Virus record (IMG/VR): IMGVR_UViG_3300032030_000021
Span: 29,122-93,121 of that record
Reading direction: 5' to 3' (one strand)
Source: a virus
Taxonomy: Duplodnaviria > Heunggongvirae > Uroviricota > Caudoviricetes
DNA: 64,000 bases
A program made the position numbers and the translations under genes. Shown piece after piece: positions 5,374-63,495 of this stretch (the stretch's first letter is position 1; each line of letters opens with the position of its first letter). The notes beneath the pieces were generated by a model. That model saw only the letters and a list, made by a program, of their open reading frames with translations. It ran no database searches and had not been told where the DNA came from.

Positions 5374-5490
5374 TAAGTAGGGGATTATGGACAGTATGCT
5401 CAAAATATATGATATGATCAAAAAAGTAAAAATATATAAGCTAGATTATCCTAATTAAATAATTATTATTAAAGAAAAAAAAATCAAATT

Positions 5491-6900: not shown

Positions 6901-6954
6901 TTCTTATAAGTTCTGATTTGAATTTTTAAAATTATTATATATTATTTTTTTCAG

Positions 6955-6970
6955 ATATCTATAAATAAAT
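6955..6970 (+). promoter_or_regulatory. late-promoter-like box TATAAATAAAT upstream of protease/scaffold gene
   Basis: Contains the T4 late consensus TATAAATA. The shared ATAAATAAAT also occurs at 8416..8426 (sheath); weaker AAATAAAT boxes precede the MCP (22132..22150) and queE (~60063..60071) genes. Confidence 0.4.
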
Positions 6971-6980
6971 ATTTTAAGAC

Positions 6981-8415: not shown

Positions 8416-8426
8416 TATAAATAAAT
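8416..8426 (+). promoter_or_regulatory. late-promoter-like box TATAAATAAAT upstream of tail sheath gene
   Basis: Same box as upstream of the protease gene, 11 nt before the ATG. Confidence 0.4.
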
Positions 8427-8436
8427 ATTAAAAATC

Positions 8437-11651: not shown

Positions 11652-11682
11652 TGCATTTTAACATTAATTTTTGAGCACCGGT

Positions 11683-11697
11683 GATTATATAATATCA
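11683..11697 (+). promoter_or_regulatory. RTTATATAW promoter-like box (GATTATATAATATCA) upstream of the TGT-like gene
   Basis: One of ~20 occurrences of G/A-TTATATA-T/A located 10-30 nt upstream of start codons, often directly after a terminator. Confidence 0.4.
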
Positions 11698-14246: not shown

Positions 14247-14259
14247 ATGCTTAATATTT

Positions 14260-14280
14260 CAAAAATAGGATTATATAAGG
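14260..14280 (+). promoter_or_regulatory. terminator-coupled promoter-like module (CTTAATATTTCAAAAATAGGATTATATAAGG)
   Basis: The same arrangement (hairpin, T-run, G-Y-T-T-A-A-T-A-T-T-T, ~15 nt, GATTATATA) recurs at 14905..14935 and 16880..16910, and in a looser form at 30662..30700, 32808..32840 and 50168..50200. Confidence 0.4.
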
Positions 14281-16878: not shown

Positions 16879-16936
16879 GTTTAATTATTTTAAGAAACGT
16901 TTATATATCTATAGAAATCCTTAAAAATATAATGAA

Positions 16937-18047: not shown

Positions 18048-18076
18048 AGGTTCCTCCGGGAACCTTTATTATTTTT
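18048..18076 (+). terminator. rho-independent terminator after PurA-like gene
   Basis: AGGTTCCtccgGGAACCT plus T-rich tract. Confidence 0.6.
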
Positions 18077-22106: not shown

Positions 22107-22158
22107 GAAGTATAATTTACACATAATCAACCAAATAAATTAAATAAATTTAGTTAAT

Positions 22159-27353: not shown

Positions 27354-27401
27354 GTCGAATTTTCAAATTATTATTGAATCAGACAAATTAATTAACACAA
27401 A

Positions 27402-30661: not shown

Positions 30662-30711
30662 GCTTCATTTTTGCACATATCCGTTATATATAATTGTATA
30701 TATTAAAAGAT

Positions 30712-31167
30712 ATGAAAATTATTAAAAATACCAAGGAGCCAAAAACCCAAAAATGTCCGGCATGTGGAAGTGTCTGGGAGTTAGAAAACAACGAATCGGA
30801 ATTGAGCGAATGTCCCGTCTGCGGAGCATATATTGAGATCCGGGAGCCGAAGATATTTGTTAAAGAAAGAACCATCAATGCAGTTATGGATCAATTGGAT
30901 TTCGAAAAAATCCATACTATCATGGAGGTTCTAGACTGGACATGGTGGGATCAAGATGTGCCCTCGATAGAAACTCTTAAAAAACATGCATATGATTTGC
31001 TAGAATATGCCTGGGAACATAAATGTTCAACCGGTACTGGAGGATTCTGGGTGGAATATGAAGGCGAAACAGACGAAGACTATCCGATGTTAAAAATATC
31101 ATTCCAGGCTTCCTGGTCCAGTTCTTGTTGGGTGGATAAAAAAAGCAATAAAATGGAATATGCATAA
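30712..31167 (+). CDS. zinc-ribbon protein
   Basis: CPACGSVWELENNESELSECPVCG. The track ORF starts at a TTG at 30694 inside the promoter-like box; the first ATG is at 30712. Confidence 0.45.
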   Translation: MKIIKNTKEPKTQKCPACGSVWELENNESELSECPVCGAYIEIREPKIFVKERTINAVMDQLDFEKIHTIMEVLDWTWWDQDVPSIETLKKHAYDLLEYAWEHKCSTGTGGFWVEYEGETDEDYPMLKISFQASWSSSCWVDKKSNKMEYA

Positions 31168-31256
31168 ACTATTATAAATTCAAAAGGTCATAAAAATGTT
31201 ATTTACGGTTATATATGTTTAATAAACTTTATTTTTCATTTTAATTTTCAAAATCT

Positions 31257-32776: not shown

Positions 32777-32807
32777 AAAAAGACCTTCGGAGAAGGTCTT
32801 TTTTTTT
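32777..32807 (+). terminator. rho-independent terminator after flotillin gene
   Basis: AAAGACCTTCggagaaGGTCTTT plus T9. Confidence 0.7.
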
Positions 32808-32842
32808 GCTTTAAAATTTGATGTTTTAGATTATATAATAAC

Positions 32843-33589: not shown

Positions 33590-33702
33590 ATGGGTTGATT
33601 TCCAATGATTTATAATAAGATCCTTATAAGAATTTTTATAGGGATCTTTTGAGATGCTTGAAAATTTATCTTAACCTTTTCCGAAACCGATTATATATTA
33701 TC

Positions 33703-34338
33703 ATGAGAGATAAATATAAGAATATGAAAAACATCGAATTAGAAAAACTGAAGGCCGAGAAGAGCCAAGTATATCACAAGATCCACAACATGGAGAAGTC
33801 CGGCAAGGAAGTTCCGGATTCTCTCAGAGATCTTCTGAAGAATCTCAATAATCGGATCTCTGATGCTAAGAAGGATCCGACGGATTCTCCGGCAGAACCT
33901 GCTCCGGTAAAGGTTTCTAAAAAATCCAAAAAAGAGCCTAAGAAGTGGCCGGATCTCACCTATAAACAAGCCGAGAAGGCTCTGAAGGCCTGGCTGGATG
34001 AGAATGACTATGAAGACGGATACCAGTTCCGCCATTCCAACAACTTCTTCATGGTCAAACCGAAGGTCTCCCAGGATCGCAAGACTAAGATGCTCCGTTT
34101 CGATTTCCGCCTGAGTTTCCTCACTAAATCTAGAAAAGTCACCAAGGACATCGAATGGGAGGTGCCTTACGGACAATGGTCTCGGATCGGCAACAGACTG
34201 AATGCACTGGAGAAAGTCATCCTCACGGAAACCTCCGACCCAGACCGCTCCGATCAAGTCTTCGGATATGATCGCTTCCAGCGCAACCTCTTCTTCGAGA
34301 AAGGCTATGACAAACACGGGTGGAGAATCCGCAAGTAA
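33703..34338 (+). CDS. hypothetical basic (Lys-rich) protein
   Basis: ATG at 33703 lies just after the GATTATATATTATC box. The track ORF starts earlier at 33649. Confidence 0.4.
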   Translation: MRDKYKNMKNIELEKLKAEKSQVYHKIHNMEKSGKEVPDSLRDLLKNLNNRISDAKKDPTDSPAEPAPVKVSKKSKKEPKKWPDLTYKQAEKALKAWLDENDYEDGYQFRHSNNFFMVKPKVSQDRKTKMLRFDFRLSFLTKSRKVTKDIEWEVPYGQWSRIGNRLNALEKVILTETSDPDRSDQVFGYDRFQRNLFFEKGYDKHGWRIRK

Positions 34339-34934: not shown

Positions 34935-34960
34935 AAGGGACTCGAAAGAGTCCTTTTTTA
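34935..34960 (+). terminator. hairpin terminator, duplicate of the 34365 hairpin
   Basis: AAGGGACTCgaaaGAGTCCTTTTTT. Confidence 0.6.
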
Positions 34961-34998
34961 ATATTTGATAGTTTCTTATATATAAACAAAAAATCCAC

Positions 34999-35769
34999 AT
35001 GGATATTTATGCAAAATACCTAGGTGAAACTCCGGAAATCATAAATCCTAACAAGAACGGTCGTCCGTTTTTTATACCGGAAGACGTTATTGATAATCTA
35101 GATTGGTCTTTACAAAACAATGGTTTTGATTCCATATGCTGGGAGGGAAACATAATAACCCAGATATGGGAGAATAAATATGGGTGGTTTGACTTTTCTA
35201 AAAATCTTATAGATATCGGAGCCGGATGCGGCGAATATCCGATATTTGCCGGATTTGCTCATTCGTATGCATTCGAACCCAATAAAACCAAGCAATGCTT
35301 CTTGTATGCCAATATGTTATGCCATGATAAAATTCATAACATAGATGTATTGCCATATTGTATAGGAGATGTAGAAAAATCGGAAACATTCAATGGCTGG
35401 ACTTCCGATAAAGATACCGATTTTGGCGATACCGGAGACCTGGTTGAGTATCGGACATTAGATAGTTTTAATTTTGAAAATATCGGGTTGATCAAAATAG
35501 ACATTGAGGGATTTGAATATTATGCTATAAAATCCGGATTAGGCACCATTATACGGAATAACTATCCTCCGTTGTTAATAGAAGTGTGGAATGATGCGGA
35601 TTTAGATGGTTATTTCGGAGAAAGGGCTCCGATATATAAAGAACGCCGGAATCATCTTTTAAATATATTAGCCCGACTGGGATATATAATGATCAATGAT
35701 CCGGACTTAGGCGATTGGGAAACCAGATTTTTTATACACCGCACTCAACCCGGAAGCTATAAACTATGA
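34999..35769 (+). CDS. FkbM-family SAM-dependent methyltransferase
   Basis: IDIGAGCGEY...FEPNK...TLDSF...IGLIKIDIEGFE is the FkbM signature. Confidence 0.6.
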   Translation: MDIYAKYLGETPEIINPNKNGRPFFIPEDVIDNLDWSLQNNGFDSICWEGNIITQIWENKYGWFDFSKNLIDIGAGCGEYPIFAGFAHSYAFEPNKTKQCFLYANMLCHDKIHNIDVLPYCIGDVEKSETFNGWTSDKDTDFGDTGDLVEYRTLDSFNFENIGLIKIDIEGFEYYAIKSGLGTIIRNNYPPLLIEVWNDADLDGYFGERAPIYKERRNHLLNILARLGYIMINDPDLGDWETRFFIHRTQPGSYKL

Positions 35770-37541: not shown

Positions 37542-37633
37542 TGCGCAAATTCGCGCTAAATTCAAGCGATCGTATCTTAGATGACCAGTTATATCACTTA
37601 AAGTGTGATCGCTTGTTATATCGCAAATATGAG
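37541..37633. repeat. conserved intergenic element copy 2 (GCGCAAATTCGCGC..TTCAAGCGATCG..35 nt..GATCGCTTGTTATATCGCAAATATG)
   Basis: Inverted repeat AAGCGATC/GATCGCTT flanks a ~35-nt spacer. Lies between the helicase gene and a tagged-family gene. Confidence 0.6.
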
Positions 37634-42884: not shown

Positions 42885-43337
42885 ATGGTAAGAGAAAAAA
42901 TAAACATCCCAAAACATCCTAAAGAATTCAGAACTGTAAAACTAAAAGATCTGAAACCTCACCCCGGAAACCCTCGCCACAATGAGCGAAGTGCCGAGAT
43001 GGTGGCGGAGTCAATCAAATCATATGGATACATCTCTCCGATAGTGGTATCCGAAGATAATACTATTCTGGCAGGACATACCAGATATAAAGCTCTTAAG
43101 ATCTTAGGACAGGATGAGGCTGAAGTTATAGTGGTGTTCGGACTCACTCCGGAAGAGATATTGGGTTTCGTTATTGCCGATAACCGTATCGGAGAATATT
43201 CCGGATGGAATTATGAAGCCGTCAATCGGATGATTGGAGACATCGAAGACAAATCTATGATGAACAAAATGGGAATGTCTACCTATGAAGACAATAAGAA
43301 AGAATTAGAGGATCTGATCAATGGAATCGAAACATAG
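42885..43337 (+). CDS. ParB/Srx-like nuclease domain protein (DpdB-like partner candidate)
   Basis: KLKDLKPHPGNPRHN...ISPIVVSEDNTILAGHTRYKALKILG is the ParB N-terminal domain signature. Overlaps the downstream TGT-like gene. Confidence 0.6.
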   Translation: MVREKINIPKHPKEFRTVKLKDLKPHPGNPRHNERSAEMVAESIKSYGYISPIVVSEDNTILAGHTRYKALKILGQDEAEVIVVFGLTPEEILGFVIADNRIGEYSGWNYEAVNRMIGDIEDKSMMNKMGMSTYEDNKKELEDLINGIET

Positions 43338-44142
43338 ATTTGTATATGGGCTTGGTGGGGGCCTGGTATATTCTACCGGTCAAGGCGGAAAATGGCAAGA
43401 AAATCTCCCTAAGATCTTGGCCACTTTTGATAATGCCGTTCTAGTAAGTCCGGTAGATATGCCTAAGAAGGCAGCTATTTTGATATACAATAGTGTAGGC
43501 ACAGATCGATTCTATTTGGACTCCGGGGGTTTCACACTCTTCAAGGATCAAGTCAAGCTCGGAGCGGATAACCCGGAATTCCACACCAAGTGCGAAAAGA
43601 TGAAAAATAAATTTCTCAATATCCTCAAAGAAGTCCGCCCAGTGGAAGTCTTTGAATTAGATAATGAATATTTCCGGCACGATCCTGATATGCTTTCTCC
43701 GAAGAACTATTGCCGGCAAGAAATCTATGATATTATAGGCAAGTATCCGACTCCGGTATTCAAGATGCACCAAGGTTTTGAATATTGGAAACGATTATGC
43801 GAGTGTGATCTATATCCCCGACTAGCTATCGGCGGTCTGGCTCAGACCCGGGAATGGAATAAGCATCCGGAGGAGTTTCGGAAGATGATGGCTTATGCCC
43901 GGCAATGTGGTAAGAAAGTCCACCTTCTGGGTTGCTATAATGTGGATGCCTTCAAGACTATCCGGCCGGATACCGCTGACTGGTCTATATTCGAGTTCAA
44001 GCAGAATATCAAGAGAGCCCGCCGGGAACATCCGGAACTTAAGACACATGCCGAGCTTTCTATACACGCGGCTCTTTATGCATTCGCTCGAGCCAGGTCT
44101 AAATCATTTCTTTATGATACATGCTTGGACGAAAACGAATAA
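43321..44142 (+). CDS. second TGT-family protein (DpdA-like DNA transglycosylase candidate)
   Basis: FYLDSGGFTLF matches TGT DSGGFQ (catalytic Asp region). RLAIGGLAQ matches GYAIGGLSVGE. KVHLLGCYNVDAF matches YLMGVGKPDDI. Confidence 0.55.
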   Translation: MESKHRFVYGLGGGLVYSTGQGGKWQENLPKILATFDNAVLVSPVDMPKKAAILIYNSVGTDRFYLDSGGFTLFKDQVKLGADNPEFHTKCEKMKNKFLNILKEVRPVEVFELDNEYFRHDPDMLSPKNYCRQEIYDIIGKYPTPVFKMHQGFEYWKRLCECDLYPRLAIGGLAQTREWNKHPEEFRKMMAYARQCGKKVHLLGCYNVDAFKTIRPDTADWSIFEFKQNIKRARREHPELKTHAELSIHAALYAFARARSKSFLYDTCLDENE

Positions 44143-44197
44143 TTGATTCTTAATATTTTTCCGATTCGTTTATATAACATCATAAGATCATAAAGAT

Positions 44198-46078: not shown

Positions 46079-47767
46079 ATGGTAATAATGAAGCTATTTA
46101 ATCTTATATCGGTCAAATACGATCAATTCATAAATACGGTACACGCACACTTAGCCAAAGTACTAGGTGAATATGATACCCCATATACAATATCCAGCAT
46201 ATTCGGTCAGCTTGTCAATGTTTTAGGAAGCGCCATTCAAAATGTATTTACATATATAGAAGACGCTATTATGGAGCAATCGAAAGCAACGGCTACTCGT
46301 AAGAACTCCATATATGGTATTGCCCAGATGTCGGGATACAATCCCAGTTTGGGTACAGCAAGCACGGCAACCATCCGGATAAGCTACATCCCTAATAACG
46401 AATCCGTTTCTAACATACTTCTGCCTAATAAGACAAAGGTAAGATGTTCTTATAATGGAATGACATATAACATCATATTTTCACAAGAAGCTATTGTATT
46501 AGATGTATCCAGAGATAATACATATAAATATCTCAATATAGTAGAAGGGAATTTTGAATCTCAAACATTCCAGCCAGCCGGAGGAGCATTATATACTATA
46601 CCCGTTAAATTCAAGGGAGATTGCGATATAGATTATCTAGAGGTATTTGTTAATGGTGAAAAATGGTCTAGTGTCGCCTGCTTATATGATATGGCTCCGG
46701 AAGGAAATGAATATGTAGTTCGGACATCTATCAAAGATGGATTTGATCTTGTGTTTGGAAACGGCCAATTTGGCAAGCAGCTTAAAGACGGAGATGTCGT
46801 GGAAGTGAGTTACCTTATCCATAATGGAGAATATGGTAATATCCCCATTTCCGACGATGTTGTGTTTGAGTTTATAGATTCCATGAAAGATACTCTTGGA
46901 AATGAAATATCGGCTAACAATATTGTGAACATGACTTTAGAGTCCGACGATAATGTATCATCCGGAACCTTTTCGGAGGCCGCATCCAAGGTTAAAGAAA
47001 TGATAGGATATAATTCTAGGAGTCTGGTATTATCCGACCCTAAAAATTATAAATTATTTCTCTCTAGATTTAGCTTTGTCGGATATAATCGGACATGGTC
47101 GGAAGAAGGAAGCCTGGTTATCAACTCACTGGTCACGCGCAATAATGTTTTAGATAAAGGAAGGGATTATTTCACTCTTCAAGAATCCGACTTTGTATTA
47201 TCAAAAGAACAAAAAAATTCCATTCGAACAGCAATTGAAAAAAGCGGACAGCAATTAGCCGGTGCGGTATATAATATATTTGATCCGGAACTAGTCAAAT
47301 ATGCTATGTTTGTATATATTAAACTTAAAGAAACCACGTATGATACGGATTATATATCCAATAGAATTAAGGACTTAGTTGGTAACTTTTTCCATGATAT
47401 TCATAATGATATATTCATACCAAAATCGGATATTATCCAGATTATCAAAAATAATATTCCGGAAATAGATAGTGTGGATATTTACATATTGTGCGAACAA
47501 AATGAAAGAGCTATAAAGGATGGGCATTATACGGAAAAGACGTATAGATATAATCCATCAAGGGAAACATATGATATTTCTAAAAAGGAAATATATTTAT
47601 ATACCGGAGAGAACCCGATGTTGGGTTTAGATGAACATGGCAATATATTTCTTGATAATGCTGATCAGATTCCTGTATTGATGGGTGGATGGAATTATAG
47701 AGATGATGAAAATCCGGATACCACAATCGCTGTTGTTGAACCGTTGTCAATAATATATACATATTAG
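46079..47767 (+). CDS. hypothetical protein (possibly virion structural/baseplate)
   Basis: 562-aa ORF preceded by a terminator. No confident motif. Confidence 0.4.
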   Translation: MVIMKLFNLISVKYDQFINTVHAHLAKVLGEYDTPYTISSIFGQLVNVLGSAIQNVFTYIEDAIMEQSKATATRKNSIYGIAQMSGYNPSLGTASTATIRISYIPNNESVSNILLPNKTKVRCSYNGMTYNIIFSQEAIVLDVSRDNTYKYLNIVEGNFESQTFQPAGGALYTIPVKFKGDCDIDYLEVFVNGEKWSSVACLYDMAPEGNEYVVRTSIKDGFDLVFGNGQFGKQLKDGDVVEVSYLIHNGEYGNIPISDDVVFEFIDSMKDTLGNEISANNIVNMTLESDDNVSSGTFSEAASKVKEMIGYNSRSLVLSDPKNYKLFLSRFSFVGYNRTWSEEGSLVINSLVTRNNVLDKGRDYFTLQESDFVLSKEQKNSIRTAIEKSGQQLAGAVYNIFDPELVKYAMFVYIKLKETTYDTDYISNRIKDLVGNFFHDIHNDIFIPKSDIIQIIKNNIPEIDSVDIYILCEQNERAIKDGHYTEKTYRYNPSRETYDISKKEIYLYTGENPMLGLDEHGNIFLDNADQIPVLMGGWNYRDDENPDTTIAVVEPLSIIYTY

Positions 47768-48919: not shown

Positions 48920-49332
48920 TGAAACACATACAGGAATCTATAATAGGAAGAAAATCGGCTTCGATAAGCAAATCGTCTATATCGGATGGGGATATTTTAG
49001 AAACCCGAGCCGGAGTGGCATTTGTATATATATCCGAAGATACTTGGGATAAAAATCTGAGCGGTCATTTTCCTGGTGGAGCTCTCGTTAATCCGGATGA
49101 TCCCAATTTTGATTTTGACTCGGTTACCAATAAATTTGATTATTGGCATGATGACCTGACGGGATCCGAAAGACATTTTGATATTGTCAAGATATACAAA
49201 GTTGATAATGATCAAAAACAGGCATATTATACGGCACTCAAAATAAAAGTCCTCCGGATTAAACGGTCTATATTAAAATCATATATCGAGAATATTATAA
49301 GTCATGCAACCCCAGTATCTATAAATAAATAG
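48919..49332 (+). CDS. tagged-family protein
   Basis: ATG at 48919 gives MKHIQESIIGRKSAS. The track ORF starts 4 codons earlier. Confidence 0.6.
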   Translation: MKHIQESIIGRKSASISKSSISDGDILETRAGVAFVYISEDTWDKNLSGHFPGGALVNPDDPNFDFDSVTNKFDYWHDDLTGSERHFDIVKIYKVDNDQKQAYYTALKIKVLRIKRSILKSYIENIISHATPVSINK

Positions 49333-49368
49333 AGAGAATTATATACTCGAATATTAAAAGTTGTTCAC

Positions 49369-50154
49369 ATGGAGAACATGGTGCTTTTTGATTTCAGTAA
49401 AAATGAAATCATAGATGTAGGCGGAATGACCGGCCAATATTCAGGATGCTATTTCGATAGGGAAAATAATGCTTATATGTGCAAATCTCAAGGGTGTCAG
49501 AATCCCGAATGGTATATCCAGCAGAAGATAGCAATCAATCAAGAAAAATATTTTGATTTCTCAAAAAATATGATTGATGTCGGGGCTTACATCGGCATTT
49601 ATAGATGGAATCTACCTTTTCAAAAGGCCTGGCTGTTTGAACCGAATAGAGAATCCTATATGTATTGCTGTGCCAATGCTGTACTACACAATCGAGTAGA
49701 AGATACCTTTATATATAATGAAATTCTTTCTCGAACCCATGAAGTTATAAGGTTTAACGGATATGAGAGCGTAACGGAAAATATGGTCGGTGCTAAACAT
49801 ATGAAAGGACAATTGTTTTATTTGAATGATGATACAATAATGATATCTAAGACACTGGACGATTTCTTGCCGGATTTCGATAATATCGGATTTATCAAAA
49901 TAGATTGTGAGGGTATGGATTGGAAAGTTATAGACGGCGGAAGAAAAACTATAAAATATTTTAACTATCCGCCAATATTGTTTGAGAATTGGCCGCCTCA
50001 AGACCATCCAAGATACCCGGTTTGGCTTAATGAATCCGGAGATGCCGCACAAGAGAGAAATAAAAATGTCCGGAGGGTATTAGAAGAACTGGGATATGAT
50101 ATATTGTGGGAATGGGGAGATTTCGAAACACATCTCGCAATACATAGGCCGTAA
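49369..50154 (+). CDS. FkbM-family SAM-dependent methyltransferase (second paralog)
   Basis: MIDVGAYIGIY...FEPNRESY...TLDDFLPDFDNIGFIKIDCEGMDW. Confidence 0.6.
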   Translation: MENMVLFDFSKNEIIDVGGMTGQYSGCYFDRENNAYMCKSQGCQNPEWYIQQKIAINQEKYFDFSKNMIDVGAYIGIYRWNLPFQKAWLFEPNRESYMYCCANAVLHNRVEDTFIYNEILSRTHEVIRFNGYESVTENMVGAKHMKGQLFYLNDDTIMISKTLDDFLPDFDNIGFIKIDCEGMDWKVIDGGRKTIKYFNYPPILFENWPPQDHPRYPVWLNESGDAAQERNKNVRRVLEELGYDILWEWGDFETHLAIHRP

Positions 50155-50234: not shown

Positions 50235-50329
50235 AAAATCGCATAAATCTTGTTAATTCAAGCGATCTTGCTTTGAGTGATATAAATGGTCATACGAGAT
50301 ACGATCGCTTGTTAAATCGCAAAAAACCG
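50235..50329. repeat. conserved intergenic element copy 3 (TTCAAGCGATC..35 nt..GATCGCTTGTTAAATCGCAAAAAA)
   Basis: Perfect 9-bp inverted repeat CAAGCGATC/GATCGCTTG. Upstream of the DNA polymerase gene. Confidence 0.6.
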
Positions 50330-50417: not shown

Positions 50418-53369
50418 ATGATATTAGATTACGGGTACGATAAGAACATCAAACAAATGTCCATCTCCTATATTGATGAAGATGGCAACAAGAAGATATT
50501 GCATTATGACAACCTCCAGAGATTCCGGACCTATTATTATACTCCTTCCGGAAGATATAATACCTGGGATGAAGCTAAATGCGATGTCAAGATGACTTCC
50601 GATCCAAGCAAGTTTGATCTTAAAGAATTCATATATAATCTGGATGAAGAAACCCAGAAGAAGATCAACGGAAAGACTTTTCCTAAGTTATATTCCTGGG
50701 ATATTGAGACTCAGATCAAGTCCAAGACCGAATTTACGGATCCTACGATAGCGGACATGCCGATTCTGACTATATCTGTCGTGGCTCCGAATCTGAGTGC
50801 TATCGTTCTAGGTACCCGGACCTTGGAAGATCCGGCGGTGGAGAATATCCGGAGGCAATATTTCGATTATCTGGAGAGCATTCCGTTCTACCGGGAGAAC
50901 CGCGACCTGTTCCAGCCGAAATTCCAATATATATACTTCGAGACGGAGGAGGCCATGCTCAAGTGGTTCTTGAAGAACATCGTAGCCAAGGTTCCAATCC
51001 TGGCCGGATGGAACTCTATCGGGTACGACTGGTGTTATGTCACTTCCCGGATCCGGAATTTCTACCCCAATATCTCCATCAAAGATTCTTCCTGGACCAA
51101 GACGCTCACCTTCAAGAACTATACTAACCAGCGCAAGGAAGACATCCGCCTTCCTCACCCCATGCATACACTGGTGCTGGATATGATGGATATTATCGAT
51201 ACTGAGGATGCCGTAGTAATGCCCATCAAAGAATCTCTGAATCTGGATTATATTGCTCATGAATCATTAGGTGCAAACAAGATCGAATATTCCGGAAGTC
51301 TGCAAGACCTATACAATACGGATTATCCGCGATATGTGTTCTATAACTGTATCGATAGCGTACTGGTGCAGCTTATTGACAAGCGATTCAAGACCATGGA
51401 CCATATCTATATGTACTCTATCTATTGCACGGAGAAAATTGGAAGCTGTTTTTCGAAGATCGCCTTAACGGAAGCATTGATTTTAAGAAACTTCCGCGAG
51501 CGAAATATCAAGATCGTATATGAAAAGAAAGAGCAGCCGGAAAGAGGCAGACTGGTCGGAGCATATGTCAAGATGCCGGTAGCCGGACTGTGGGAGCTGG
51601 TATGTTGTAATGACTTTTCCGGACTGTATCCCACTACGGGTATTGTCACTAATGTAAGTTTTGATAACTTCGTCGGCACCTTTTATAATGAAGCGGCTCT
51701 GGATAAATATAGAGGCGATCCTAAATATATTGTGGTTTGTGCTAGTGTATATAAAAACAAAGGCACCATAGACAAGCCGGAGTTGGGAGAGTTTGTAGCC
51801 CAGTATCTGGATGAGGAAGCATTGGAACCCTACCGCAAGGATAAAAACTATTTCGTATCTATCAACGGGCATGTCTATAAAAATGACAAGGACTATACTT
51901 TGAAAACCGTATGGAATAATCTGAGAATGGAAAGAGCATTCAGCAAGTATCTTTCTAAGAAAATGGATGCTCAGATCATTTCCGATATAGATCACATTCT
52001 CCGGTGTTATAAGGACCACCCCCAATTAGGATTGTCCGAGCTTAATCATGATATTCTCCATAAATACGAGAAAGATGAAATTGATGTCCTGAAGAGTGTG
52101 GGATATAGTATTACTTCCGGTGAGAATCTGGTTAAAATGTCCGAAAAAGACCTCAAAGAACTCAAACGGAAGGTCAAGACGGAGATTACCTATCATTCCA
52201 ACCTGGAACAAGCTATCAAGCTTATGATGAACTCTATCTACGGGGGAACCTCGCACCAGGCATTCTATTGGTTCAATATTGCTTTGGCTAACGACATCAC
52301 CGGAGAAGGTCGCAACCTTACTCACCACATGGAGCGCCACCTCAATGAGTTCTGGAGAGATGCTTGGCAGACTAATCCGGACTTGAAAAAGATCCAAGAC
52401 GAACTCGACCTGAAGCTGAAACCGGAAAGTGCAATTAAAGCAATACTTGAGGCGTCACATGATAACTCCTTGGTTACCACGGTATACGGAGACACCGATA
52501 GTTTGTATCTTTCCTATAAGGATCTTATTGATACCATTGAAGGATCCGAGAAATTCACATTAGATGAGAAACTTAAGATCATTCTCAAGATCAATACGGA
52601 ATTCTTGGATAAACATAATGAAGATCACCTGAGAGAATACTTCTTATCTAGAAATGCCCGTCCGGATACCGCCGGATTGGAGGCATTCGAATTGGAGACC
52701 GTCAACAAGCGTGGCGTATGGCTTCGGGATACCAAGAAGAGATATGCTCAGATCCTGCTCTGGAAGGAAGGAAAATTCTATGATCTGGACGATCTACCTA
52801 TGAAAGTCAAGGGTTTGGAGGTGATCAAGTCTTCTTATCCGACCCTATCCCGGAATCTGCTGAAAAATATGTTCCGGTTCATGCTAGAATACGACGGCAA
52901 ATATCTTTCTCAGGAGCTGAACTTGCTTAACATAAAACAGAGGGAAGAATGGAACAGTGCCCCGATTGAGGATATCTGTGCTAATGTCCGATGCAATAAA
53001 TATACCGATTATGTAGCGGATGATACCAAGGAGCTCATACTCAAGCCCAAGTGTCCGCCTAATGTCCAGGCATTGGCGAGATACAACTGGCTCAACAATA
53101 CCCATAAGTTCGGGTCGGAACCACTGTATGGCGGAAAGATCAAGCAATATATTGTCAAGCAGATGATTCGAAAGACCAAGTCTACTCAAGTGGATCAGTT
53201 CTTTGGCTACGAGAGTAACAAATACCCGAAGTGGGCAGATCAATATGCTCCGATAGACCGGACCCGGATGTATCAAAACTATGTGTTGGATCCTATTAAT
53301 AGAATCTTGGAGGCTGTTGGTATGCCTAAGCTCATGATTGACGGATCTATACAGATGGGATTGTTTTAA
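50418..53369 (+). CDS. family-B DNA polymerase with 3'-5' exonuclease domain
   Basis: Exo I YSWDIETQ. Motif A DFSGLYPT. KLMMNSIYGG. Motif C YGDTDSLYL. Confidence 0.9.
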   Translation: MILDYGYDKNIKQMSISYIDEDGNKKILHYDNLQRFRTYYYTPSGRYNTWDEAKCDVKMTSDPSKFDLKEFIYNLDEETQKKINGKTFPKLYSWDIETQIKSKTEFTDPTIADMPILTISVVAPNLSAIVLGTRTLEDPAVENIRRQYFDYLESIPFYRENRDLFQPKFQYIYFETEEAMLKWFLKNIVAKVPILAGWNSIGYDWCYVTSRIRNFYPNISIKDSSWTKTLTFKNYTNQRKEDIRLPHPMHTLVLDMMDIIDTEDAVVMPIKESLNLDYIAHESLGANKIEYSGSLQDLYNTDYPRYVFYNCIDSVLVQLIDKRFKTMDHIYMYSIYCTEKIGSCFSKIALTEALILRNFRERNIKIVYEKKEQPERGRLVGAYVKMPVAGLWELVCCNDFSGLYPTTGIVTNVSFDNFVGTFYNEAALDKYRGDPKYIVVCASVYKNKGTIDKPELGEFVAQYLDEEALEPYRKDKNYFVSINGHVYKNDKDYTLKTVWNNLRMERAFSKYLSKKMDAQIISDIDHILRCYKDHPQLGLSELNHDILHKYEKDEIDVLKSVGYSITSGENLVKMSEKDLKELKRKVKTEITYHSNLEQAIKLMMNSIYGGTSHQAFYWFNIALANDITGEGRNLTHHMERHLNEFWRDAWQTNPDLKKIQDELDLKLKPESAIKAILEASHDNSLVTTVYGDTDSLYLSYKDLIDTIEGSEKFTLDEKLKIILKINTEFLDKHNEDHLREYFLSRNARPDTAGLEAFELETVNKRGVWLRDTKKRYAQILLWKEGKFYDLDDLPMKVKGLEVIKSSYPTLSRNLLKNMFRFMLEYDGKYLSQELNLLNIKQREEWNSAPIEDICANVRCNKYTDYVADDTKELILKPKCPPNVQALARYNWLNNTHKFGSEPLYGGKIKQYIVKQMIRKTKSTQVDQFFGYESNKYPKWADQYAPIDRTRMYQNYVLDPINRILEAVGMPKLMIDGSIQMGLF

Positions 53370-54466
53370 TTGACCTGCTCTAATCCGCTACTACCGTTGG
53401 TTTTATACAATAAACCGGTATGTACTAATAAACATTTATATTCGTATCCTTCCGTATCTATATTAACCCCATCATTTTTATTGCCTATATAAATTAAAGC
53501 ATCATTTCTATTTTTAAATGCTCTAGATGGAACAGTATTATATAAGAACCTATTACGGTATGGCCTGTTTCCACCTTTAGACTTGTAAGTTATATAATAT
53601 GCCAGATATATCGCATAACTTCCATCTGCGGATATTTCCGCTTCTTCTCCTCCGGGAAGAGGAAGTTCTAATATTGATGAAGAATCTTCAGCAATTCCAG
53701 CAACATTTGCGGCGCCACCCCTTGTATCGGAAACCCCCATCCACACAACATTGCTTTCACGAGCATTTAATATTTGTCTACGGCCACCCACATATATTTT
53801 AGTAATAGGTTCTCCGGTTGCAATAGAATCATTGACTACATCGAATACCATATTTAATGGGACTTGTATGGGACCATACCATTCGAGAGTTGGTGTATCC
53901 GCTTGAGCACCTATATACTCTTCAGCCGCCGACTCGTTGGTAAATATAACAGGTATACCCCATCCGGTATAATGATGATTATCGTCAAATAATTCATAAT
54001 ACAATATGTATATATAGTCTTGATCCGTAGGTATGCTTATATTGTATGTATTCATACCGGATGAAGAAGGCCACGGATTGTTTATACCGGAATCCGTTGC
54101 TAATAGCTGATGTTGCGAATTATTTCCCGGAGTATCTCTTCTATATATAGTTATAGTACGCTCCTCATACACAATCGGGTTTCCGCCCGGGTCGTCGGGA
54201 TTTCCGTGAGTACCTTGATCGTCATCTTGAATTAAAGCCTCCGATATATCCACAATATCTCCGTCTATCATTCCGGTTAATATTTCTATTATATCTTCTA
54301 ATCGGCTTAATACGGTTACTCTATGGTTCTCATAATATATATCAGTACAATCTTTCATATGCCCGTCATAGAGCCTGGAGACCGGCTCCATAGTTTTGAC
54401 TATGTCCATATTAATAGTAATCCTTCCAAGGTCTACCAATTTATTAAATGTTATAAATTTTGCCAT
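53366..54466 (-). CDS. hypothetical protein (possible baseplate component)
   Basis: 366-aa ORF downstream (in transcription order) of the gp25-like gene. A TTATATAAT box lies upstream on the minus strand. Confidence 0.4.
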   Translation of the reverse strand: MAKFITFNKLVDLGRITINMDIVKTMEPVSRLYDGHMKDCTDIYYENHRVTVLSRLEDIIEILTGMIDGDIVDISEALIQDDDQGTHGNPDDPGGNPIVYEERTITIYRRDTPGNNSQHQLLATDSGINNPWPSSSGMNTYNISIPTDQDYIYILYYELFDDNHHYTGWGIPVIFTNESAAEEYIGAQADTPTLEWYGPIQVPLNMVFDVVNDSIATGEPITKIYVGGRRQILNARESNVVWMGVSDTRGGAANVAGIAEDSSSILELPLPGGEEAEISADGSYAIYLAYYITYKSKGGNRPYRNRFLYNTVPSRAFKNRNDALIYIGNKNDGVNIDTEGYEYKCLLVHTGLLYKTNGSSGLEQVN

Positions 54467-54655
54467 ATTTTGATTATATTATATAAATAATCAAAACGAA
54501 AATATGGAAAATATGTCCCAAGATTTGCTTGAATTGGAAGAAAATGAAAAGCCTGTTACCGATTTAGACATTGAATCCGAAAAAGATTCGCAGTCGTCTC
54601 CGGTGGATTGGAGTACAACCTGCACATTAGGATGTGATGTGAACTGGATTCATGT

Positions 54656-56914: not shown

Positions 56915-57562
56915 TTAATCAACGCAAAAATCAATATCAATATTATTAAAACGAAATGTAACCTCAAACGTCTCTTTTTGCCGCTCTATTTTGTCATAAG
57001 AAAAATCCAATCCATCTATACCGGAGATCTCCGGCTGCATTAATATAACCTTAACCATTGGCTCTCCGATTTCGTTTAGAATGAAAAGAGTAAAATTATC
57101 TTTATAGCTTCCGAATAATTCCGGCTTGACATATCTATAAAATATAGTTTCATACATCATCCAATAATTCAAAAGACCTTGGTTTTGCCGGAAAGATATT
57201 CTAAATTCATTATCAATTTTATCTAGCGGGTTGCCGGAGTTCATAGAGCTATGAATATGGTGCGGCTCTACATTGATTTTGCCACCAATACCCGGTATAT
57301 GCTTCATAGAATTATGCCCGACTTGTTCTTGTTCTTGTATCAGATCTTGTATGCCCGGAAAAGACACGCCCGTAATGGATTCATTAAGATAATTTATACT
57401 GCTAGTCAAGACTCCCTGATTTTTACTCAAAACGGTATCGTACTTGTCCAAAACCTCTTTTGGAAAGTAGTCTTTAGGTAACAGAATGCGGAAAAGATCA
57501 AATCTCGGAGCAAGACTTAACATGGTTTGTTTTTTTTTTATAAAAAATAAATTCCGACACAA
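56915..57562 (-). CDS. hypothetical protein (tail module)
   Basis: 215-aa ORF, first gene of the minus-strand cluster. Confidence 0.4.
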   Translation of the reverse strand: MCRNLFFIKKKQTMLSLAPRFDLFRILLPKDYFPKEVLDKYDTVLSKNQGVLTSSINYLNESITGVSFPGIQDLIQEQEQVGHNSMKHIPGIGGKINVEPHHIHSSMNSGNPLDKIDNEFRISFRQNQGLLNYWMMYETIFYRYVKPELFGSYKDNFTLFILNEIGEPMVKVILMQPEISGIDGLDFSYDKIERQKETFEVTFRFNNIDIDFCVD

Positions 57563-57617
57563 TCAGGCTTAAGAAAATCCGTTAATAGATTATATATATT
57601 CAAAATAATTATACTCT

Positions 57618-58337: not shown

Positions 58338-58387
58338 TCTTAATAAAAACGGAAACGGATTATATAATATCATAAAAATATAAGATT

Positions 58388-59039: not shown

Positions 59040-59444
59040 ATGAATAAAGAGCTTAAAAAAGAATTTGAGTCCGTTGTTCAAAAATACACGGACCTATTTT
59101 GTGAAAAAATGTACGGCGCCCCTAGAGATCCCGAGGATTATTGGGCTGGGGAAGACGTCGGTGGTATCATCAGTATCGGAGATGAATTTTGGGGATTTGA
59201 TCAGATTCGCGAGACGATTGATAATGATTATGATCCCAAACAGGTATTTGCTTGGTATGATTATTGTGTGAGACTCGGATCTATTGATCCCGGCATTTCA
59301 ACCCCTAATCTATCTCAATGGATGAGGGGGTGTCCTAGATATACCGAGGAGCAGATATCCGCTATGGAAGGCTTAATCAAACAGCATATTGCGTCTATTG
59401 AATCATTCAAAAGGGATCTCCCCGGAAAGGAGGCGGAATGTTAA
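59040..59444 (+). CDS. hypothetical protein
   Basis: 134-aa ORF whose end overlaps the start of the sigma gene. Confidence 0.4.
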   Translation: MNKELKKEFESVVQKYTDLFCEKMYGAPRDPEDYWAGEDVGGIISIGDEFWGFDQIRETIDNDYDPKQVFAWYDYCVRLGSIDPGISTPNLSQWMRGCPRYTEEQISAMEGLIKQHIASIESFKRDLPGKEAEC

Positions 59445-60040
59445 ATATAACAAATGAAGACATTCGTCCATATAAATATTTAGTAGACAAAATTGCCTGG
59501 CAGGAATATAAGAATAGTCAGGTTTTATTAGAAGACCTTAAAGGATATGGTTATGAGGGGTTATTAGATGCCTTTCAAACATACGATCCCAATAAAGGCC
59601 AGACATTCAAGCAGTATGCCGCATATCGGATATACTATTTTATTCGGAATAACATATATAAAGAAGGTACTACGGTAAGGATGAACTCGTATGTAGTTAA
59701 AGAGCGCAAAACACAAAATCAATCTCTTTATATCATGTCACCAATTGAGTATGAGAAGGGTGGCGAAATTATGTATAGAAACGAACCATCGGAAGATCCG
59801 GCAAATTTTGATAATATATGGGAGCTGGTCCGAAAGGAGATCCGTGCCAAATACAAAGAAAGAGACTTCAAAATTTTCGCCAAATCATTTGGCCTCTATG
59901 GAGAATCCGTAGTTAAGAAATGTGAGGTAGCTAAAGAGTATCACATCACACCGGCGGCGGTTACTCTAAATAACCAGAAGATTATCAAGTTCTTGAAGAC
60001 CAAACCGGAAATTATAGACTCATTGAGAGATCTGTTATAA
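59438..60040 (+). CDS. sigma-70 family RNA polymerase sigma factor (compact, regions 2 and 4)
   Basis: Region 2-like YGYEGLLDAFQTYDPNKGQTFKQYAAYRIYYFIRN. Region 4 HTH CEVAKEYHITPAAVTLNNQKIIKFLK. Strong GGAAAGGAGG RBS. Confidence 0.6.
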   Translation: MLNITNEDIRPYKYLVDKIAWQEYKNSQVLLEDLKGYGYEGLLDAFQTYDPNKGQTFKQYAAYRIYYFIRNNIYKEGTTVRMNSYVVKERKTQNQSLYIMSPIEYEKGGEIMYRNEPSEDPANFDNIWELVRKEIRAKYKERDFKIFAKSFGLYGESVVKKCEVAKEYHITPAAVTLNNQKIIKFLKTKPEIIDSLRDLL

Positions 60041-60080
60041 TTAAAAACATATCGAATAAACAAATAAATAACATAATAAT

Positions 60081-60986
60081 ATGTCGAAACCCAAATTACC
60101 CATTATCGAATTATTCACTAGTATCCAAGGTGAGGGTATGTATGCCGGAGTACCATCCGTATTTGTGAGAGTAACCGGCTGTAATCTCCGGTGTATCTTC
60201 AAGAATTCTATCTGTGATACACCTTATAGTTCTTTTAATCCGGAAAAACCAAAGTTCACTGTAGAAGATGTAGCTAAAGAGTTTATTAACCATCCAAAAG
60301 TCAATCATCTGGTAATTACTGGCGGAGAACCCACATTATATGATCTAGATGGTTTCATAGAGGAACTAAATAGTATCTTGTTTAAAGAAACTGGAATTGA
60401 TCGTGCTTATAATATAGAGGTCACTATTGAAACTAATGGTACCAATGAGATTTCGAAAAAACTTTTGAATACATTAGAATTAATTTCCGTTTCACCTAAG
60501 CTTTCCGCCTCATGCCTTTCGGATCGTGTTATAAAAGAACTAGAAGATCCGAATGGTAATGTGGGTATACAGATCAATGACGGTATTGATGAAAAAGGAA
60601 ATTGTAAAAAGAAAGATGTCTGGGCATCTGCCGAACAACTCCGTAATCATAACAAAAACCGCATCAATATTGATGTTCTGACGGATTTTGCGGATGCATT
60701 TGCCGACGTACAATACAAATTTGTATATTCGGGACCGGAATCTGAAAAAGAGATCTTAGAGATCCGCGATAAGATTGCAGACAAATTACAATTGAGATAT
60801 CCGGATGTAGGATCAGAAGATCTTCGTGAAGTCATCGATGAATATATCTGGTTGATGCCGGAAGGGATAGACTCCGAAAGATTATCCGAGACCGCCAAAG
60901 AAGCGGTAGAGGTATGTATCCGTAACGGATGGCACTATACCGACCGATTGCATATTCGGATCTGGGGTAACGAGCGTAATAAATAA
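60081..60986 (+). CDS. queE: 7-carboxy-7-deazaguanine synthase (QueE, radical SAM)
   Basis: IELFTSIQGEGMYAGVPSVFVRVTGCNLRCIFKNSICDTPYS matches the QueE signature (QGEG...P.vFvRl.GCnLrC..CDTpy). AAATAAATA box upstream. Confidence 0.65.
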   Translation: MSKPKLPIIELFTSIQGEGMYAGVPSVFVRVTGCNLRCIFKNSICDTPYSSFNPEKPKFTVEDVAKEFINHPKVNHLVITGGEPTLYDLDGFIEELNSILFKETGIDRAYNIEVTIETNGTNEISKKLLNTLELISVSPKLSASCLSDRVIKELEDPNGNVGIQINDGIDEKGNCKKKDVWASAEQLRNHNKNRINIDVLTDFADAFADVQYKFVYSGPESEKEILEIRDKIADKLQLRYPDVGSEDLREVIDEYIWLMPEGIDSERLSETAKEAVEVCIRNGWHYTDRLHIRIWGNERNK

Positions 60987-62450: not shown

Positions 62451-62517
62451 ATAATTTTATTTTCTTTTTAAAAAAATAAAAAAGTCCGGTTATATATATC
62501 AAAATTAATGGTTCAAA

Positions 62518-63495
62518 ATGTCCGGAAAGAAAAAGAAAAAAATTCCCCGATACATAGCGGATACCGACGATAAAAACATATTGCAACGATATTTTGAAGA
62601 AGTAGGCAAGATTTATGAGGATAATGATAATGAGTTTGATATTGAATATTGCGAAGAAAATCGAGATAAACTTTTGAAGATGAATTTAAAATGCGTTATC
62701 AAGACCGCTAAAGGATATCGAGGAAGAGGTTTATCATTAGAGGAATTGATTTCCGCGGGAAACGAAGGATTATGCATTGCCTGGGATAAATATAATCCTA
62801 AACGCAATAAAATCAGGGAAAAGATTTTTAATGATATTAATGCTTGTAATGATATGATTCCTAAACAGTGGATCATAGAGCATATTGGCGAATATTGTGA
62901 GTACGGGAGGTATAAAGAAAAATTCTCAAAGAAATTCGTTAACGTTAAAAAAACCGAGTTTACAAAAGAAGAAGTCTTATCCTGGGTAGATAAAAATATC
63001 ACCAAAGCCACATTTAATTCGGTAGCTATGCTTTGGGTCAATGCATACATCCGCCAAGAATTAAATAAGAACTCCCGCATGGTAAAGAAACCGATCAAAG
63101 ACATCCAGGCGGAAATCCGGGGCGATGCACCAAAAGAATTCCTATTAGATATATCTTCTCCATTAGATGTCGGGTCCAATAACATCACCCTAGATGAAAA
63201 ACTAGACCTAGCTGATAGCGAACACATGGATATAGATGATGAGGATACTTTTGTTATGCTTCATGACACCCTTAAAACATTATTTACAAATATCAATATA
63301 AGAGACCGGCGACTGGTGCTGCAAAGATTTGGTGTAGGATATGTAAGACCATTTCAACCGCGAGAGATTGCGGAAAGGGAAAATATATCGGTTGCCCGAG
63401 TCAGTCAAATATTATCCGACACTATCAAGAAAATGCAAAAGAATGCCGAAATATACGGATTAAAAGGAGAAGATATATTATCATATTTTGAATAA
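62518..63495 (+). CDS. sigma-70 family sigma factor-like protein (second copy)
   Basis: Region 2-like LEELISAGNEGLCIAWDKYNPKRN. C-terminal region 4.2-like REIAERENISVARVSQILSDTIKKMQK. GGTTATATATATC box upstream. Confidence 0.55.
   Translation: MSGKKKKKIPRYIADTDDKNILQRYFEEVGKIYEDNDNEFDIEYCEENRDKLLKMNLKCVIKTAKGYRGRGLSLEELISAGNEGLCIAWDKYNPKRNKIREKIFNDINACNDMIPKQWIIEHIGEYCEYGRYKEKFSKKFVNVKKTEFTKEEVLSWVDKNITKATFNSVAMLWVNAYIRQELNKNSRMVKKPIKDIQAEIRGDAPKEFLLDISSPLDVGSNNITLDEKLDLADSEHMDIDDEDTFVMLHDTLKTLFTNINIRDRRLVLQRFGVGYVRPFQPREIAERENISVARVSQILSDTIKKMQKNAEIYGLKGEDILSYFE

Follow-up and report, generated by a model that had tools for sequence, protein, structure and literature searches.

Two divergent sigma-70-family proteins and candidate phage-specific promoters in a large uncultured myovirus with T4-type core genes

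Sigma cascades encoded by phages are textbook for phages of Bacillus and E. coli. The Bacillus phage SPO1 is a large myovirus with no RNA polymerase (RNAP) of its own, and more than one sigma-family protein re-targets the host core RNAP, in temporal order, to promoter classes specific to the phage; its first sigma gene, an early gene, has a host sigma-A promoter, and the later sigma gene is expressed from the earlier promoter class. To our knowledge, takeover by large phages of gut and rumen Bacteroidota, whose primary sigma factor and ribosomes use unusual signals, is almost uncharacterized. Here we describe a 64-kb stretch of phage DNA (the window; positions 29,122 to 93,121 of IMG/VR record IMGVR_UViG_3300032030_000021) that encodes two sigma-70-family proteins, designated sig1 and sig2, and carries a recurrent intergenic motif, class (a), which reads as a bipartite, phage-specific promoter-like element heading nucleotide-metabolism and replication genes and both sigma genes.

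Several other systems resemble parts of this locus. The sigma-70-family proteins gp36 of phage phiEco32 and gp47 of phage 7-11 form a holoenzyme with host core RNAP, and gp47 recognizes a bipartite phage consensus with a 16-nt spacer ahead of phage genes (PMC8948821). In T4-like phages, PeSL cassettes combine a stem-loop terminator with a host sigma-70 early promoter in small repeated modules (PMC2839356, PMC4122927). The large gp23-type jumbo phages of 'group 2', which have a family-B polymerase and include Bacteroidetes phages (Lak, PTm1), have no RNAP and encode sigma factors of a minimal and of an RpoD-like type (Iyer, Aravind et al., PMC7824862).

The window is like SPO1 in encoding more than one sigma-family protein, which would re-target host core RNAP. 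Like phages phiEco32 (gp36) and 7-11 (gp47, a Salmonella phage), it encodes a phage sigma-70-family protein, and like 7-11 it has a bipartite phage-specific element, here a promoter-like one. Unlike the first SPO1 sigma gene, which lies behind a host sigma-A promoter, neither sigma gene of the window is preceded by a host-type promoter. Promoter sequences also differ from those of SPO1, sig1 and sig2 are not detectably closer to SPO1 gp28 and gp34 than to bacterial sigmas, and the host signals for translation and transcription are of the type lacking Shine-Dalgarno sequences. Whereas phiEco32 and 7-11 use a single sigma for late genes and have early promoters of the host sigma-70 type, the window has two sigmas, and the genes served by its bipartite class are non-structural, those for the sigmas among them. 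With the gp55/gp33/gp45 system of T4, the window shares T4-type structural core genes and an A/T-rich box with TATAAATA before two late genes. However, no gp55 homolog was found in the window, and the box is neither conserved nor enriched and appears to act as a fixed-distance translation signal.

The best explanation of the whole, which we favor by a slight degree, is that the two sigmas serve phage-specific promoters of class (a) and of a second class, designated (c), with the box TATTATT, and that an A-rich motif designated (b) is a translation signal.

Two divergent sigma-70-family proteins in a T4-type genome

59438..60040, + strand: sig1, compact 200-aa sigma-70-family protein with regions 2, the start of 3.0, and 4
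62518..63495, + strand: sig2, 325-aa RpoD/RpoS-like sigma-70-family protein with a Lys-rich N-terminus and a ~60-aa insertion

A first-pass annotation, made by inspection of the sequence, had assigned sigma region 2 and region 4 helix-turn-helix (HTH) signatures to both open reading frames (ORFs). Both ORFs are present, and profile and PDB matches support the assignment, with sig1 scoring just under curated cut-offs. Specifically, sig1 gave 22.3 bits against Pfam Sigma70_r2 (cut-off 24) and 38.1 bits against TIGR02937 (cut-off 42.9; residues 9-188), and it matched PHROG 351 'RNA polymerase sigma factor' (E 3e-13, residues 12-188) and PDB RpoS/RpoD chains (E 2e-6). In region 4, the TIGR02937 alignment extends to profile position 163 of 165. 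An AlphaFold model of sig1 (mean predicted local distance difference test score (pLDDT) 72) has a helical C-terminal domain (residues 127-187, pLDDT 84-94) and, in a Foldseek comparison, matched the sigma chains of RNAP holoenzyme structures with prob 1.0. For sig2, the Pfam scores were 23.5 bits for region 2 (cut-off 24) and 23.5 bits for region 4 (cut-off 24.1; residues 262-308), the TIGR02937 score of 66.3 bits exceeds the 42.9 cut-off, and matches were obtained to PHROG 351 (E 1e-20) and to PDB RpoS (E 1.7e-9, with regions 2 and 4 aligned).

Neither protein reaches a subfamily or equivalog cut-off of any named sigma subfamily (RpoD, RpoS, FliA, SigK, ECF, and others); the RpoS equivalog model gave 42 and 62 bits for the two proteins versus a cut-off of 378.7 bits. 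Their similarity to each other is remote only. On these comparisons, both ORFs are genuine but divergent sigma-70-family proteins, and because both have regions 2 and 4, neither is of the minimal single-HTH type. The sig2 insertion (~60 aa, residues ~99-160) lies between regions 2.2 and 2.3, is common to all sig2 relatives, and has a compact predicted domain structure of helices and strands (pLDDT 84-93). Close relatives keep the Lys-rich N-terminus of sig2 (MSGKKKKKIPRY). Unlike the published survey of such phages, which lists proteins only (PMC7824862), the present data define this lineage-specific insertion together with candidate cognate promoters.

The sig1 gene is the fourth of an operon starting at 57618 (in the order 57618, 58388, 59040, sig1, queE) and overlaps the upstream ORF by 7 nt. 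A full HMMER search of a representative library yielded 1275 sig1-family proteins (E <= 1e-3), some of ~200-240 aa and others of ~450-480 aa, and a word-indexed search yielded 398 sig2 relatives on contigs of up to 259 kb. In the long forms, which occur in distant relatives (for example L009:1418-2869, minus strand; related lineages are given L numbers), the sig1-like module makes up the C-terminal two-thirds and follows an uncharacterized N-terminal extension of ~130 aa. A long sig1 form and a sig2 ortholog share one 164-kb contig (L003/L009; hhalign probability 95.6%), both sigma genes lie within one operon in L034, and five distant IMG/VR lineages have a sig1-like ORF that follows sig2 at 3.5-4.8 kb on its downstream side. 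Judged by these homologs, the sigma pair recurs in a large family of metagenomic phages whose capsid and protease genes are of gp23 and gp21 type, in agreement with the survey of gp23-type phages (PMC7824862).

The window is densely coding, mostly on the + strand, with minus-strand blocks at 53.4-57.6 kb and 61.0-62.5 kb. PHROG and Pfam scans identified the following core genes, along with a helicase and many nucleotide-metabolism and DNA-modification genes.

6981-8396: gp21-type prohead protease (Pfam Peptidase_S77 in its relatives)
8437-11427: tail sheath
22159-24048: major capsid protein (MCP; Pfam Gp23 in its relatives)
46079-47767: baseplate wedge protein
50418-53369: family-B DNA polymerase

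The window therefore belongs to a large uncultured myovirus whose core genes are of T4 type (gp23-like capsid, gp21-like protease, sheath, and family-B polymerase). Near-identity and protein searches of isolated phages (INPHARED) found no close relative and just a few remote sigma matches. IMG/VR scans with single proteins gave no match, but an alignment query did recover lineages, and in metagenome assemblies there are syntenic contigs, 99-150 kb long, as well as members of a much broader family reaching about 290 kb. Scans for Rfam families and tRNAs found nothing in the window. A Shine-Dalgarno core precedes 4 of 73 genes, the commonest base at -16..-11 is A, and the 20 nt ahead of start codons are 48% A and <10% G. 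Bacteroidia mRNAs lack Shine-Dalgarno sequences (PMC6847099). Because such sequences are almost wholly absent from the window, its host phylum is probably Bacteroidota.

A bipartite element ahead of non-structural genes

The heptamer TTATATA is the top non-terminator k-mer enriched in the non-coding sequence of the window. It occurs 43 times per strand; non-coding DNA, only 6% of the window, holds 17 of the 43 + strand copies. Within -60..-1 of genes, sense copies precede 15 of 74 genes, versus 3.4 +/- 1.7 expected from dinucleotide shuffles (0 of 1000 shuffles reach 15). To compare candidate boxes, all 128 A/T-only heptamers were ranked with control for composition, by zone and strand, in the window, near relatives, and far relatives; TTATATA ranks first in the zone -45..-20 of the window. 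This ranking replaced Gibbs sampling of pooled upstream regions in distant relatives, which gave no clean motif because the lineages are heterogeneous and start calls are rough.

Three longest-ORF TTG starts were corrected to downstream in-frame ATGs. TTATATA sites at 14271, 30684, and 33691 fall inside called ORFs, which a probable start at the downstream ATG would explain (14298, 30712, and 33703 or 33724, respectively). The TTG starts of ORFs 14214-14552, 30694-31167, 33649-34338, and 56915-57562 (minus strand) are probably wrong; with these ATGs, and with 57523 for the last ORF, promoter and terminator signals become intergenic and lie at the usual distance. After correction there are 17-18 class (a) sites, 10 of which sit 27-30 nt ahead of an ATG. 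The recurrence of this motif ahead of mostly non-structural genes, as the first-pass annotation had claimed, is thus borne out.

Alignment of 18 sites revealed a further box upstream, [C/T]TTAAT(ATTT), which spans -21..-12 relative to the first T of TTATATA, and a G at -2. The geometry can be written as CTTAAT-N16-TATATA or, equivalently, TTAATA-N17-TATA(A/T)N, which is sigma-70-type spacing with a consensus of its own. An upstream partner had been proposed earlier as GYTTAATATTT; the exact string G[CT]TTAATATTT occurs only once in the window, but a looser TTAA[TA] box at the fixed register accompanies 9 of 15 start-proximal TTATATA copies versus 3 of 71 other copies (Fisher 2e-6). The bipartite pattern was found 12 times, whereas Markov simulations gave 1.6 +/- 1.2. 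Orthologous sites in L005, L006, L001, L033, and L034 keep both boxes with a diverged spacer, and TTATATA is enriched ahead of genes in L001, L006, and L007.

As had also been noticed earlier, class (a) often follows a terminator: the box lies 22-31 nt downstream of 8 of the 13 intrinsic terminators on the + strand. These terminator-promoter cassettes share near-identical stems (AAGACCTTC...GAAGGTCTT at 14877, 30634, and 32780). Genes behind class (a) include those for dCTP deaminase, a PurA/PurZ-like synthetase, thymidylate kinase, two methyltransferases, phosphoesterases, a helicase operon, and both sigmas, and all genes served are non-structural or of unknown function.

11664..11692, + strand: class (a), TTAAT box ... 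TTATATA, 29 nt ahead of ATG 11714; conserved in L005 and L006
13616..13644, + strand: class (a), after terminator 13595-13615, ahead of the dCTP deaminase gene 13666
14250..14278, + strand: class (a), GCTTAATATTT ... TTATATA, after terminator 14223-14240, implied start ATG 14298; orthologous site present in L005
14906..14934, + strand: class (a), CTTAATATTT-N11-TTATATAT, after terminator 14877-14898, ahead of gene 14954; both boxes kept in L005 and L006, spacer diverged
16880..16908, + strand: class (a), after terminator 16852-16871, ahead of the PurA/PurZ-like gene 16937
30663..30691, + strand: class (a), after terminator 30634-30655, likely true start ATG 30712 (28 nt)
31188..31216, + strand: class (a) -10-like box (ACGGTTATATAT), 48 nt ahead of gene 31257
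32810..32838, + strand: class (a), after terminator 32780-32800, ahead of the phosphatase-like gene 32843
33670..33698, + strand: class (a), CTTAAC ... TTATATAT, implied start ATG 33703 or 33724, not TTG 33649
34955..34983, + strand: class (a), after terminator 34938-34953, ahead of the methyltransferase-helicase operon 34999
44149..44177, + strand: class (a), CTTAATATTT ... TTATATAA, ahead of the thymidylate kinase gene 44198
49318..49346, + strand: class (a) -10-like box, ahead of the methyltransferase gene 49369
54479..54507, minus strand: class (a)-like box, 20 nt ahead of minus-strand gene 53366-54466
57569..57597, + strand: class (a), heads the operon from 57618 through sig1 to queE; L001 ortholog with CCTTAATATTT box
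58339..58367, + strand: class (a), CTTAATAAAA ... TTATATAA, ahead of gene 58388 within the sig1 operon
62469..62497, + strand: class (a) -10-like box (GTCCGGTTATATATAT) with no clear -35 box, 28 nt ahead of the sig2 ATG; variants kept in L001 (TCATATATAT) and L033 (CTTTATATATAA)

The repetitive nature of these cassettes, with their near-identical stems, would also fit recombination or mobility modules, or binding sites for phage regulators between genes, that are not primarily promoters. The window does have other conserved intergenic boxes of unknown role, and antisense TTATATA counts are high (12 genes), because the core is nearly palindromic (TTATATAA). However, the -35-like box is orientation specific with sigma-70-type spacing, the distance to start codons is fixed at 27-30 nt, placement is directly after terminators, and both boxes are conserved while spacers diverge. 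We therefore regard a primarily non-promoter role as quite improbable.

A more substantial alternative to a phage-sigma class is that class (a) comprises early promoters for the unmodified host holoenzyme, as in PeSLs, and that the phage sigmas act later, for example on TATTATT. Like PeSLs, the cassettes are repeated modules of terminator and promoter-like element between short units with recurring stems, mirroring the early-promoter PeSLs of T4-like phages (PMC4122927). Gene-content differences at cassettes are seen between the window and L005-L008. Class (a) genes have typical early or middle functions, and a host-started cascade predicts class (a) boxes, and no other recognizable promoter, before both sigma genes. 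Against this stands the sequence of the element, which, unlike the host sigma-70 promoters of PeSLs, fails to match the presumed host consensus. In Flavobacterium johnsoniae TAHHTTTG promoters, T-12, A-11, T-8, T-7, T-6, and G-5 are nearly invariant (PMC6847099). Class (a) has no TTTG, a comparison that presupposes a Bacteroidota host, and it is also a poor match to the E. coli-type consensus. We consider use by the unmodified host holoenzyme possible but unlikely.

The first-pass annotation had set its proposed cascade apart from host Bacteroidota-type promoters, and class (a) is indeed unlike the Bacteroidota consensus (-33 TTTG, -7 TAnnTTTG). Upstream of genes, TAHHTTTG is not enriched in the window (2 versus 1.8 expected), in near relatives (3 versus 4.1), or in far relatives (13 versus 14.0), and only two intergenic sense matches occur in the window. 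A scan with the E. coli sigma-70 consensus gave 69 matches versus 69.2 expected and is uninformative for this phage. That both consensus types stand at background is the main argument, an indirect one, that a phage sigma would read class (a).

Two further candidates were rejected. A host-type promoter before sig2 was considered, and the + strand has only a 7/8 match (TAATTTTA at 62452); the minus strand has a perfect TAATTTTG, but this is not positionally conserved in L001. An archaeal TATA/B recognition element reading of (G/C-rich)-TTATATA at about -27, with leaderless transcripts, was discarded because the sigma genes are bacterial, the core genes are of T4 type, and internal operon genes also lack Shine-Dalgarno sequences.

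Late genes: an A-rich leader motif and the TATTATT box

The first-pass annotation had proposed class (a) as a phage-sigma class and, as its partner, a T4-type late class defined by ATAAATAAAT and its core TATAAATA. In a T4-like early-to-late switch, this late class would be read by a gp55-like phage sigma. Its placement of motif (b) before the protease, sheath, MCP, and queE genes is correct, but the window holds only three exact copies of ATAAATAAAT on the + strand (6961 before the protease gene, 8417 before the sheath gene, and 49321), and enrichment is marginal. The third copy lies just upstream of the class (a) box at 49318..49346, inside the end of the preceding gene. Variants with AAATAAAT lie ahead of the MCP (22133, 22142) and queE (60062) genes.

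6960..6971, + strand: class (b) box TATAAATAAATA, in the 5' leader of the prohead protease gene; read as an A-rich translation-initiation element
8416..8427, + strand: class (b) box, ahead of the sheath gene, within the 40 nt that separate it from the protease gene and contain no terminator
22133..22150, + strand: AAATAAATTAAATAAAT, ahead of the MCP gene, taken to be an A-rich translation-initiation zone
60062..60069, + strand: AAATAAAT, 19 nt ahead of queE, a non-structural gene

Some evidence does favor T4-type late transcription. The phage carries T4-type core genes, TATAAATA lies 21 nt ahead of both the protease and the sheath ATGs with weak enrichment (upstream of 5 genes versus 1.6 expected; 17 of 1000 shuffles reach 5), and sig1 is near gp55 in length (200 versus 185 aa). 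AAATAAAT is similarly marginal (6 genes versus 2.5 expected; 37 of 1000 shuffles). However, T4 gp55 has no region 4 HTH, whereas sig1 and sig2 both keep it. Similarity of the sig1 family to gp55 is nil (hhalign probability 0.3%), and the two belong to different PHROG families (phrog_351 for sig1, phrog_234 for gp55). A phmmer search of the ORFs in the window, which is part of a genome, found neither gp55 nor gp45. PHROG scans of the window gave no gp33-type family, though T4 gp33 itself was not a query and remote homologs could be missed, and scans of small neighboring ORFs gave no AsiA- or gp33-like factor.

The motif itself behaves poorly as a promoter. TATAAATA precedes the protease and sheath genes only and is missing upstream of the MCP and baseplate genes. 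In relatives with protease identities of 77-89%, it is broken (L005 sheath TACAAATA; L006 protease TAAAAATA; protease also CTAAATAAAC) while the AAATAAA core is retained. Among the 128 A/T heptamers in the promoter zone, TATAAAT ranks 15th in the window, 54th in near relatives, and 82nd in far relatives. AAATAAA is instead concentrated in the zone -19..-1; of 48 occurrences over nine loci, 25 start at -18 +/- 2 relative to the ATG, and it also occurs at -18 before queE, before a sig2 homolog, and before genes where the box overlaps the upstream stop codon in tight operons. A transcription start 6 nt past the box would give a 7-nt leader. The sheath box lies in a 40-nt gap without a terminator, and thus the protease and sheath genes probably share a transcript. 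A T4-type late promoter read by a gp55-like sigma is therefore improbable.

A start at -18 places adenines of AAATAAA at -14..-12, and A at -14 to -11, especially at -12 and -13, stimulates translation in F. johnsoniae (Baez et al., PMC6847099). The window shows the A-rich initiation pattern of Bacteroidia, with scarce Shine-Dalgarno sequences and A at -14..-12 supplied by AAATAAA. Because motif (b) is fixed at -18, overlaps stop codons in tight operons, and matches the published pattern (PMC6847099), we consider it probable that motif (b) is a strong A-rich translation-initiation element of highly expressed genes and not a promoter. A T4 consensus spotted by eye in an A/T-rich leader does not constitute evidence of T4-type late transcription.

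A better candidate for the late genes is the TATTATT box of class (c), which fits them better than motif (b).

5463..5470, + strand: class (c) box TTATTATT, 27-28 nt ahead of gene 5491
6917..6947, + strand: footprint TTTGAA-N17-TATTAT(TT) containing the class (c) box, 34-64 nt ahead of the protease ATG
18066..18074, + strand: class (c) box TTATTATTT, immediately downstream of terminator 18048-18065 and 27 nt ahead of gene 18094
27369..27375, + strand: class (c) box TATTATT, 33 nt ahead of gene 27402

In the zone -45..-20, TATTATT occurs 23 times in sense versus once in antisense in near relatives and 41 versus 11 times in far relatives, ranking second of 128 in both. Across 24 loci, 73 of 341 occurrences lie 15-45 nt ahead of a sense start. 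The box is found ahead of the protease gene in 7 of 7 lineages, ahead of the L003 MCP gene, and ahead of the L006 M15 peptidase gene, and it often abuts a terminator hairpin, with no space for a -35 box. Before the protease gene, TTTGAA-N17-TATTAT is kept in the window and in L005-L008 with a diverged spacer, and TATTATT is also present in L009 and L010, which makes this footprint a candidate for the real promoter from which the protease-sheath unit is transcribed. TTTGAA-N17-TATTAT was rejected as a promoter class of general use since it is conserved before the protease gene only. With TATTATT replacing motif (b) as the second member, the proposal that two promoter classes serve different sets of genes tentatively survives.

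Upstream of the capsid gene, at 22078-22107, the sequence next to a terminator hairpin, on its downstream side, is a conserved TTTTATTTTTG(A/T)A..(T/C)ATAAT, also found upstream of L007:20746 and L008:13360. This segment holds one of the two intergenic sense host-type -7 matches (TATTTTTG) and a TATAAT-like hexamer, and therefore the capsid promoter may be of yet another kind.

A candidate cascade, neighboring features, and significance

In the favored explanation, the phage sigmas would bind host core RNAP and redirect it to phage promoters that the host primary sigma (TTTG/TAnnTTTG) does not use. Sequence statistics and conservation show that hairpin terminators cut the genome into short transcription units, about 17 of them headed by class (a) in the form of CTTAAT/TTAATA, 16-17 nt, and TATATA(T) or TATAAT, 27-30 nt before the ATG. 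Class (a) would direct early and middle expression and class (c) late expression, each read by one sigma. The most economical model would be an SPO1-like cascade in which one sigma serves class (a), with its -35 and -10 boxes, and the other serves the -35-less TATTATT. Which sigma reads which class is a guess: by analogy with SPO1 gp28 followed by gp33/34, sig2 might read (a) and sig1 might read (c). Promoter function, sigma dependence, timing, and the pairing of sigmas with classes are inferred steps, built on the observed sigma homology, motif, two-box architecture, and conservation. A temporal cascade driven by phage sigmas, as the first-pass annotation had suggested, is plausible.

Several observations weigh against this explanation. 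In the window, L001, L033, and L034, both sigma genes lie behind class (a), with no host-type promoter before either. The sig2 gene has only a class (a) -10 box upstream (window, L001, and L033), and sig1, as well as both genes in L034, lies in class (a)-headed operons. If class (a) depends on a phage sigma, the start of the loop is therefore left unexplained. The boxes of classes (a) and (c) share A/T richness and an initial TTAT, so they might be variants of one element, and in the window TATTATT is modest, with 4 sites in -45..-20 (genes 5491, 6981, 18094, and 27402) and a rank of 33 of 128. The Bacteroidota host is deduced from a single trait, missing Shine-Dalgarno sequences, and the relatives found in GTDB genomes are on 2 short, mis-binned contigs of metagenome-assembled genomes labeled Clostridia and Parabacteroides. 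Finally, the window is part of a genome, and host-type early promoters or a gp55/gp33 pair could lie elsewhere.

Three routes could start the loop: the host holoenzyme could use class (a), an early region beyond the window could trigger it, or a sigma could enter with the virion. In every relative examined, the sigma genes lie only behind class (a) and the host-type box is at background, and therefore a sigma might enter with the virion. The family may thus have dropped host-type promoters, and a virion-delivered phage sigma, possibly the Lys-rich sig2, might start transcription, although we rate this as a very long shot. If true, it would be new, a sigma-level counterpart of injected phage RNA polymerases.

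Other conserved intergenic boxes were observed. A box of ~22 nt, GATC(G/T)CTTGTTA(T/A)ATCGCAAA(T/A)A, occurs in long intergenic regions at 11620-11650, 37607-37630, and 50303-50326, ahead of genes 11714, 37696, and the DNA polymerase gene 50418, and L005 and L006 keep it at orthologous sites. A hairpin CAAGCGATC...GATCGCTTG (37563-37615 and 50259-50311) lies ahead of two of the copies, and the two 35-nt loops look mutually reverse-complementary. No Rfam match was found. The box could act as an operator or early promoter, or be origin-like. The palindrome TTTTATAAAA, mostly within TATTTTTTATAAAAA, occurs 5 times in the window versus 0.7 expected (including 14558, 24156, 50228, and 57536). It lies 19-22 nt ahead of the starts of genes 14577 and 24175 and of the minus-strand gene at 57523, and also before orthologous genes in relatives (palindrome at L001:2453, L006:14329, L007:14490, and L008:9342). 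It is a possible regulator or translational-operator site.

The window also encodes a DNA hypermodification set: a QueE-like radical SAM protein (60081-60986), a DpdA-like queuine-tRNA-ribosyltransferase (43321-44142), a ParB-like protein (42885-43337), dCTP deaminase (13666-14187), a PurA/PurZ-like adenylosuccinate synthetase (phrog_1211; 16937-18043), and methyltransferases (34999-35769 and 49369-50154). This set suggests that the phage DNA carries 7-deazaguanine and possibly other modified bases. Directly downstream of the MCP gene are tandem paralogous HNH/homing-endonuclease-like ORFs (24175-25737 and 25734-27353; phrog_3339, E 1e-111 to 1e-113). The NrdD protein (anaerobic ribonucleotide reductase, 1311 aa) of a close relative contains an intein and LAGLIDADG homing-endonuclease domains (L001:13679-17614 and L002:3753-7688).

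Phage sigmas with cognate promoters are a known strategy, and this locus would be a new example in an under-studied host group, with a defined promoter consensus. It offers testable parts: two conserved sigmas, a bipartite promoter in about 17 instances, the candidate late box TATTATT, and a strong A-rich translation signal. These parts could support transcription-unit annotation for hundreds of related phages from metagenomes and could serve as orthogonal expression parts for Bacteroidota.

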